Assembly: GCF_044647545.1 (NCBI RefSeq)
Contig: NZ_CP172818.1
DNA length: 64,000 bases
Reading direction: 5' to 3' (one strand)
Source of the DNA: Escherichia coli
GTDB lineage: Bacteria; Pseudomonadota; Gammaproteobacteria; Enterobacterales; Enterobacteriaceae
The translations under genes were made by a program, and so were the position numbers. This document shows, piece after piece, positions 2,211 through 2,822 of the stretch. The number at the start of each line of letters is the position of its first letter. The first letter of the stretch is position 1. Below the pieces are notes generated by a model. The model ran no database searches. It was not told the DNA's origin and saw only the letters and a program-made list of their open reading frames with translations.

Positions 2211-2822
2211 AGCCCCCCCCCCCTCCAGTGTCTCCCCGTGTGGCCGGGACCCCCCCAAGACCCACAGCTGACCGGGGATGACGTCTCCCCGTTCCCGCCA
2301 GTCCCCCTTCCCTCACCGGCCCCCCCGACTCCCCCCCGCCCGCGAACCCACGCCTGCCGCGAAAACAGGATGAACCCCAAAAGCCGTGAAAGACGGCAAA
2401 AAGGACCCCCCCGCCCGGGGGGGGAGTAAGCGCACCGGCCCGGGCGCGGCGCCCCCCGCAACCGGCGGGGGCCGCCCAGCGCCCGGCGGACTCCCTACAC
2501 CACGACGCCCCGGCGCGGGGGCGCCCCGACGCGAACGGGTGCCGCGACGCCAAACGTCCGGCCCCGACCGCGACGAAAACCGCGACCGCCACGAAACGGC
2601 ACACACAGGCGAAACACAGCGGCCGACGCGGCGCGGACGGGAGGGCGGCCCCGCGGCCGCGGGCACGCACGGGGCACCCGCGCCAACGGAACAGACAGGC
2701 CCGCCCCGACCCCCCCGGGGGCGCGGCGCACCGGGCAGAAACCCCCCCCGGGGGCAACCGAACGCGGGCCGGATCGCAGCCGAACAACGCCCCCCCAACC
2801 CCCCCCCCCCCCGGGTGTTCCT
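2211..2822. other. C/G-rich low-complexity block with homopolymer runs; probable artefact, garbled IS2-like motifs
   Basis: Runs such as cccccccccccc, and stretches like gaccggggatgacgtctcccc and aaaagccgtgaaagacggcaaaaaggacccccccgcccggggggggagtaag that resemble IS2 insC sequence as I recall it. Confidence 0.6.

Follow-up and report, generated by a model that had tools for sequence, protein, structure and literature searches.

IS2 is a 1331-bp member of the IS3 family. In Escherichia coli K-12 MG1655, one copy (IS2K, NC_000913.3 4498181..4499511) lies between intB and yjgX, 240 bp past full-length intB and 81 bp ahead of yjgX. The complete IntB protein has 421 amino acids and is made up of an arm domain, a central domain, and a C-terminal catalytic domain. 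Another arrangement is found in strain 500010 (NZ_CM129041.1), where an IS2-like element that is 95.7% identical to the K-12 IS2 (4579..5909 of the locus that we extracted) sits inside an otherwise full-length intB. This insertion is 428 bp downstream of the point where intB breaks off in the sequence that we studied, and therefore, intB has been struck independently by IS2-type elements in other lineages. In strain EC931 (NZ_CP049118.1 3317126..3317727), a truncated intB is fused to a remnant of yjgX, without any IS.

We analyzed a 64,000-nt stretch of DNA from another strain of E. coli (the window). Here too, intB is truncated and is followed by the yjgX remnant, and between them is a GC-rich tract of 603 nt, which we call block 1. 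Our reading of block 1, to which we assign a probability of about 93%, is that it is non-biological: it is a single copy of IS2 that was corrupted by base-biased deletion. The relevant features of the window are:

1512..1596, + strand: leuX, tRNA-Leu(CAA), the attachment site of the island (found by ARAGORN; annotated as tRNA-Leu in K-12 and EC931)
1783..2212, + strand: 5' fragment of intB, encoding a P4-type integrase, 143 codons (open reading frame from the ATG at 1783; Pfam domains PF13356 and PF22022 only)
2213..2815, + strand: block 1, 603 nt, read as a corrupted IS2 with insC/insD in the sense orientation, covering about positions 1-10 to 1225-1250 of the 1331 nt of IS2 (from the subsequence test and alignment)
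2816..2971, - strand: remnant of yjgX, a phosphoethanolamine-transferase pseudogene; clean sequence restarts exactly at the deletion junction of EC931
42880..43544, no strand assigned: block 2, which replaces the IS1 that lies between nanC and a fimbrial-gene remnant in strains 042, ST648, and EC931
62382..63295, no strand assigned: block 3, between mdtM and yjiA, a site at which relatives have IS1 and neighboring genes

We set the edges of block 1 by comparison with relatives. The original prediction, which was made from the sequence of the window, had described a degenerate block of about 610 bp at 2211-2822. The tract is present, far beyond chance, and its limits are 2213..2815. At the left edge, the sequence switches abruptly after ...GAGTTAAAAACTCGAG at 2212, and at the right edge, ordinary sequence is back at 2816 (TGTTCCTTTAACC...). 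Within the block, the GC content of 100-nt windows is 0.69-0.85. T makes up about 14% of the bases at the left edge and 0-3% from 2351 on; across more than 200 nt it is just 0-1%, and the AT skew is 0.9. There is a run of 11 C's at 2213-2223, and the longest run has 14 C's (2799-2812; the maximum had been given, slightly too low, as 13). When we computed base entropy in 200-nt windows, values below 1.75 bits were confined to three blocks of the 64-kb window, namely block 1, block 2 (at about 42880..43544), and block 3, so a complexity profile does bring out all three together, as had been anticipated. Block 1 has an XhoI site (CTCGAG) and a SmaI site (CCCGGG) at its edges, and we considered whether these were traces of engineering; we rejected this because CTCGAG is native to intB in both K-12 and EC931.

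The flanks of block 1 are most closely related to EC931. Window positions 273..2212 are identical to EC931 except for one 1-nt indel at 278 (and are about 98% identical to K-12), and window positions 2816..4215 are 99.6% identical to EC931 (8303..9700 of its extracted locus), with the first difference at 3141. In alignments to K-12, identity was 98.0% for 297..2212 and 98.6% for 2816..6000. EC931 also shares the right-hand junction, to the base. The difference is that EC931 has 16 bp (ATTTATTAGCACCTAT, which are the next 16 bases of intB) in place of the 603-nt block. Compared to K-12 strains, block 1 replaces 2180 bp of NCM3722 or 3516 bp of MG1655.

These comparisons bear on what happened to intB. 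As first described, intB reads normally for 143 codons from the ATG at 1783. The fragment encodes the arm DNA-binding domain (PF13356) and half of the central domain (PF22022), without the catalytic domain, so the complete IntB architecture is lacking. It had also been claimed that the block truncates intB. This does not hold up: because EC931 carries the same truncation and the same right-hand junction, fused to the same yjgX remnant, and has no block, the loss of the C-terminus is natural and inherited. Judging from these sequence comparisons, the truncation of intB is a natural deletion that is older than block 1.

Several features of the surrounding DNA are worth recording. At the left end of the window (1..297), the idn operon of K-12 (idnK/D/O/T/R) is absent and yjgR abuts ahr, as in EC931; in the yjgR-ahr gap, EC931 has 78 extra bp (6268..6345 of its locus) versus 5 bp in the window (268..272). 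On the other side, 2816..27000 is a KpLE2-type leuX island, which gives a single 24.2-kb alignment to K-12 at 99.6% identity. It contains IS4, nanXY, IS911/IS30/IS600, fecIRABCDE, IS1F, and yjhU-yjhG. Although the island is K-12-like, the chromosomal flanks are like those of EC931 and 042. The first ~1.4 kb of the island is nearer to EC931 (99.6%) than to K-12 (98.6%), and the switch is near 4202..4215.

If block 1 were natural, we might hope to see it elsewhere. The original prediction had named a natural homologue as something that would contradict the artefact reading, and we found none in the collections searched. With blastn in "distant" mode, block 1 had no match among 5,426 complete E. 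coli genomes even at E = 10; because the low-complexity filter was on, this result alone does not prove that the block is unrelated to their sequences. A 42-mer from block 1 was absent from the GTDB representative genomes and from the JGI metagenomes. We considered natural GC-rich or homopolymeric tracts, such as a contingency locus or foreign high-GC DNA, and the tract was not in any independent genome that was searched. The five open reading frames that had been listed for this region (2075..2461, 2200..2787, 2313..2798, 2386..2826, and 2495..3094) are all present at those coordinates, and the view that they are Pro/Arg/Gly-rich artefacts is upheld. None of the four that we tested matched an NCBIfam family, and exact look-ups of the products of block 1 reading frames found none on record.

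Although the collection contains thousands of copies of IS2, BLAST cannot align block 1 to a single one; block 1 and IS2 are related as a subsequence and a sequence. The longest common subsequence (LCS) of block 1 and the K-12 IS2 is 602 out of 603, so block 1 is an ordered subsequence of IS2, exact to within one base. As controls, 30 shuffled sequences gave 532 ± 3 (maximum 539), the reverse complement of IS2 gave 533, and 35 other 1331-nt pieces of the window gave at most 554. An alignment in which deletions are cheap gave a score of 732 for block 1 against IS2, compared to 462 ± 10 for shuffled sequences, 456 for the reverse complement, and no more than 517 for other DNA from the window. 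This alignment, which is the pairwise check against IS2 that had been proposed, follows the element collinearly and contains just 2 mismatches and no insertion. Block 1 had been described as holding altered strings that resemble insC of IS2. The relation to IS2 is real and is much stronger than that description implies, but the block is not "heavily altered": it has deletions only, with almost no substitutions. All of the 9- to 13-mers that block 1 shares with the MG1655 segment lie in IS2 and share its strand; ACCGGGGATGACG is one of them. We also asked if block 1 could be compressed native DNA of K-12 (the 3' part of intB, and yjgX). This was rejected, as k-mers shared with the 2180-bp segment of NCM3722 were at background.

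About 730 of the ~1330 bases of IS2 (~55%) are missing from block 1, and retention depends on the base: 281 of 317 C's were kept (89%), along with 186 of 389 G's (48%), 108 of 341 A's (32%), and 26 of 284 T's (9%). In 100-nt bins across positions 1-1200 of IS2, the retention of C is 95-100%, with a single exception (86%, for 901-1000), while the retention of T falls to zero along the element. Trimming IS2 at either end reduces the LCS, which indicates that the block reaches from about position 1-10 to about position 1225-1250; the final ~100 nt of the element seem to be unrepresented. A simulation in which bases are deleted independently, at rates that are specific to the base and the position, reproduces the segment statistics of block 1. 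Departures from this model are mild: A's in runs of at least 3 were kept at a rate of 0.60, where 0.44 ± 0.06 is expected, and there is a slight surplus of long intact segments. Deletion of the bases between the C's accounts for the C runs, for the ~80% GC content, for the compression, and for the Pro/Arg/Gly-rich reading frames.

Might the likeness to IS2 be a coincidence? Block 1 could be generic low-complexity junk, such as poly-G or poly-C read tails from two-color Illumina sequencing. In two-color chemistry, an absent signal is called as G, and the poly-G of block 3, together with the C runs of block 1 (which are poly-G on the other strand), recall such calls. However, the LCS is about 23 standard deviations above composition-matched shuffles and is specific to the strand and the direction, and the shared 9- to 13-mers are all in IS2. 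Also, Illumina errors are substitutions rather than deletions, and block 1 has no substitutions; over-calling of G or C would break the subsequence relation. We consider coincidence to be very improbable, and we view this explanation as effectively refuted.

The subsequence relation also bears on whether block 1 could be real chromosomal DNA, either a relic of IS2 in which hundreds of small deletions accumulated in vivo, or a foreign insert of very high GC content. All that speaks for this is that leuX islands do contain foreign inserts of high GC content in some cases. A match of 602/603 to a subsequence of IS2, without substitutions, excludes a foreign origin, and erosion would require ~250 separate deletion events and zero point mutations. 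The near-absence of T across more than 200 nt and the AT skew are unlike any natural gene (and we know of no natural gene in which T is missing for such a length). We found no homologue in the 5,426 E. coli genomes or in the other collections, and a companion block (block 3) includes 116 nt of poly-G. Real chromosomal DNA of either kind is thus effectively refuted, and we give it hardly any probability. In a variant of this idea, the tract is physically in the strain, and the IS2 was rewritten by a process that takes out single T, A, and G residues, spares C, makes no substitutions, and also acts on IS1. To our knowledge, no mutational process drops ~730 single bases in ~250 events without any insertion and with virtually no substitution, and we see only a vanishingly small chance that this variant is correct.

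Returning to the corrupted IS2, we compared it with functional copies. The collinearity extends across the whole element, in the sense of a subsequence from which 55% of the bases are absent. The functional organization of IS2 (~1.3 kb, with insC/insD as orfA/orfB and a programmed frameshift) is gone, as block 1 is 603 nt and has no such reading frame. A search for the 30-mer at the right end of IS2 found nothing with up to 3 mismatches, and there is no recognizable terminal inverted repeat. No 5-bp target duplication is readable in block 1, whose ends are reduced to C runs. Rebuilding the insertion point and the target duplication from the C runs gave an ambiguous result; the final ~100 nt of IS2 seem absent, so that the joins cannot be given a biological interpretation. 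As for the location, IS2K of K-12 is also between intB and yjgX and in the same orientation, and block 1 is collinear with it on the same strand. The statement in the original prediction that K-12 has an IS2 directly downstream of intB was accurate, with IS2K lying those 240 bp beyond the gene. The two sites differ, as intB is full-length in K-12, while here the IS2 text begins at codon 143 of intB. No genome in the collection has an IS2 at exactly this intB'/'yjgX junction: apart from strain 500010, composite queries brought up nothing but the K-12 arrangement. It is from the corrupted text that we infer a real IS2 at this junction. One copy, in the K-12 orientation, would sit between the naturally truncated intB and the yjgX remnant in the KpLE2-type leuX island.

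The other two blocks help to show what kind of error this is. Block 2 is rich in G and C, has a 25-nt poly-G, and is located at a deletion in the fim operon. In its flanks, identity to E. coli 042, ST648, and EC931 is 100%. Its first 391 nt have an LCS with IS1 of 375 out of 391 (96%), as compared to 335 ± 3.5 for shuffled sequences. In block 2, the favored base is G instead of C, and the IS1 is in the opposite orientation. IS1 does not account for the last ~270 nt of block 2. Block 3 is 66% G, including the 116-nt poly-G at 62900..63015, and gave no subsequence signal against the references that we tried (strains 300709 and CP8-3). Its right edge (63199..63295) recovers gradually and is 87.5% identical to the 3' end of mrr from strain CP8-3, and therefore, the corruption extends into unique DNA. 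A deletion-only model for the second half of block 2 and for block 3 fails against the references from strains 300709 and CP8-3, as G exceeds the candidate parents. Because these sequences are richer in G than the parents, either a second error mode (over-calling or insertion of G) is needed, or else the parents differ. The proposal that all three blocks share one non-biological cause is therefore upheld in part: the same deletion signature is found in block 2, within its first 391 nt, and block 3 does not display it and can only be linked to blocks 1 and 2 by its location and composition.

The window also includes intact copies of IS4, of IS911/IS30/IS600, and of a diverged IS1F (20673..21436). 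Only IS2 and IS1A/B-type copies, which are high-identity multi-copy repeats, are garbled. Overall, three blocks co-occur, relatives have IS1 or IS2 at all three sites, block 1 and the first 391 nt of block 2 can be derived by deletion, and the flanks are clean. The original prediction had read block 1 as an artefact that was derived from IS2, compressed, and inflated in GC content, and the LCS of 602/603, the lack of the tract in every collection searched, and the signature in block 2 all support this.

How might such an artefact arise? On IS2, the corruption works as a base-biased deletion channel, with C nearly always kept, G kept about half of the time, A about a third of the time, and T almost never. 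The cause is probably a failure of repeat resolution or of consensus calling, which we infer to be the most likely one. The high-identity multi-copy repeats IS1 and IS2 may have been filled in, or their consensus called, from too little signal or from poor signal, while unique sequence and single-copy or diverged ISs would have been assembled correctly. A candidate source is a majority vote across a few deletion-prone reads, or else a neural consensus caller or base-caller that emits mostly blanks. Such voting or calling could turn a modest base-specific drop-out into nearly all-or-none retention of C versus T. One point against a failure that is strictly limited to repeats is that block 3 runs beyond the IS into unique DNA (the 3' end of mrr). 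The blocks do resemble low-signal or low-coverage artefacts of consensus or base calling at repeats, in that they are centered on multi-copy ISs, are rich in homopolymers, are inflated in GC content, number three in one 64-kb window, and were seen in none of the other genomes. They differ from Illumina poly-G artefacts, which have a substitution profile, in that block 1 shows pure base-biased deletion. The drop-out profile (C > G > A > T) does not exactly match that of any named platform known to us, and when we searched the literature for a named artefact of this type, we obtained only generic reports of two-color poly-G.

Alternatively, the corruption may have occurred purely in silico, after assembly, by faulty processing, compression, or generation, or the sequence might be synthetic, whether by design or by accident. 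This would be a special case of our reading, as the tract would still be non-biological and derived from IS2. It fits the almost memoryless model of per-base deletion with base-specific rates, and it also fits the perfectly sharp edges of block 1, the last ~100 nt of IS2 that appear to be simply missing, and the absence of the tract from every collection searched. On the other hand, the excess retention of A's in runs and the slight excess of long intact segments would better suit a process that depends on signal, block 3 passes gradually into correct sequence in the manner of a degrading read, and only high-identity multi-copy types of IS were hit. We regard a purely in-silico origin as possible, but we lean against it.

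As a non-biological corruption of IS2, block 1 is a matter of data hygiene only: it is not a real feature. Block 1 and its two sister blocks should be masked, and the five open reading frames over 2075..3094 should not be annotated. The LCS test identifies a garbled element that is beyond the reach of BLAST alignment, and it could be used to flag this failure at further copies of IS1 or IS2 in the source assembly. As for the biology of the locus, intB should be annotated as a pseudogene whose truncation is natural and was not caused by block 1, and the order of the locus should be taken as intB' - (IS2) - 'yjgX.
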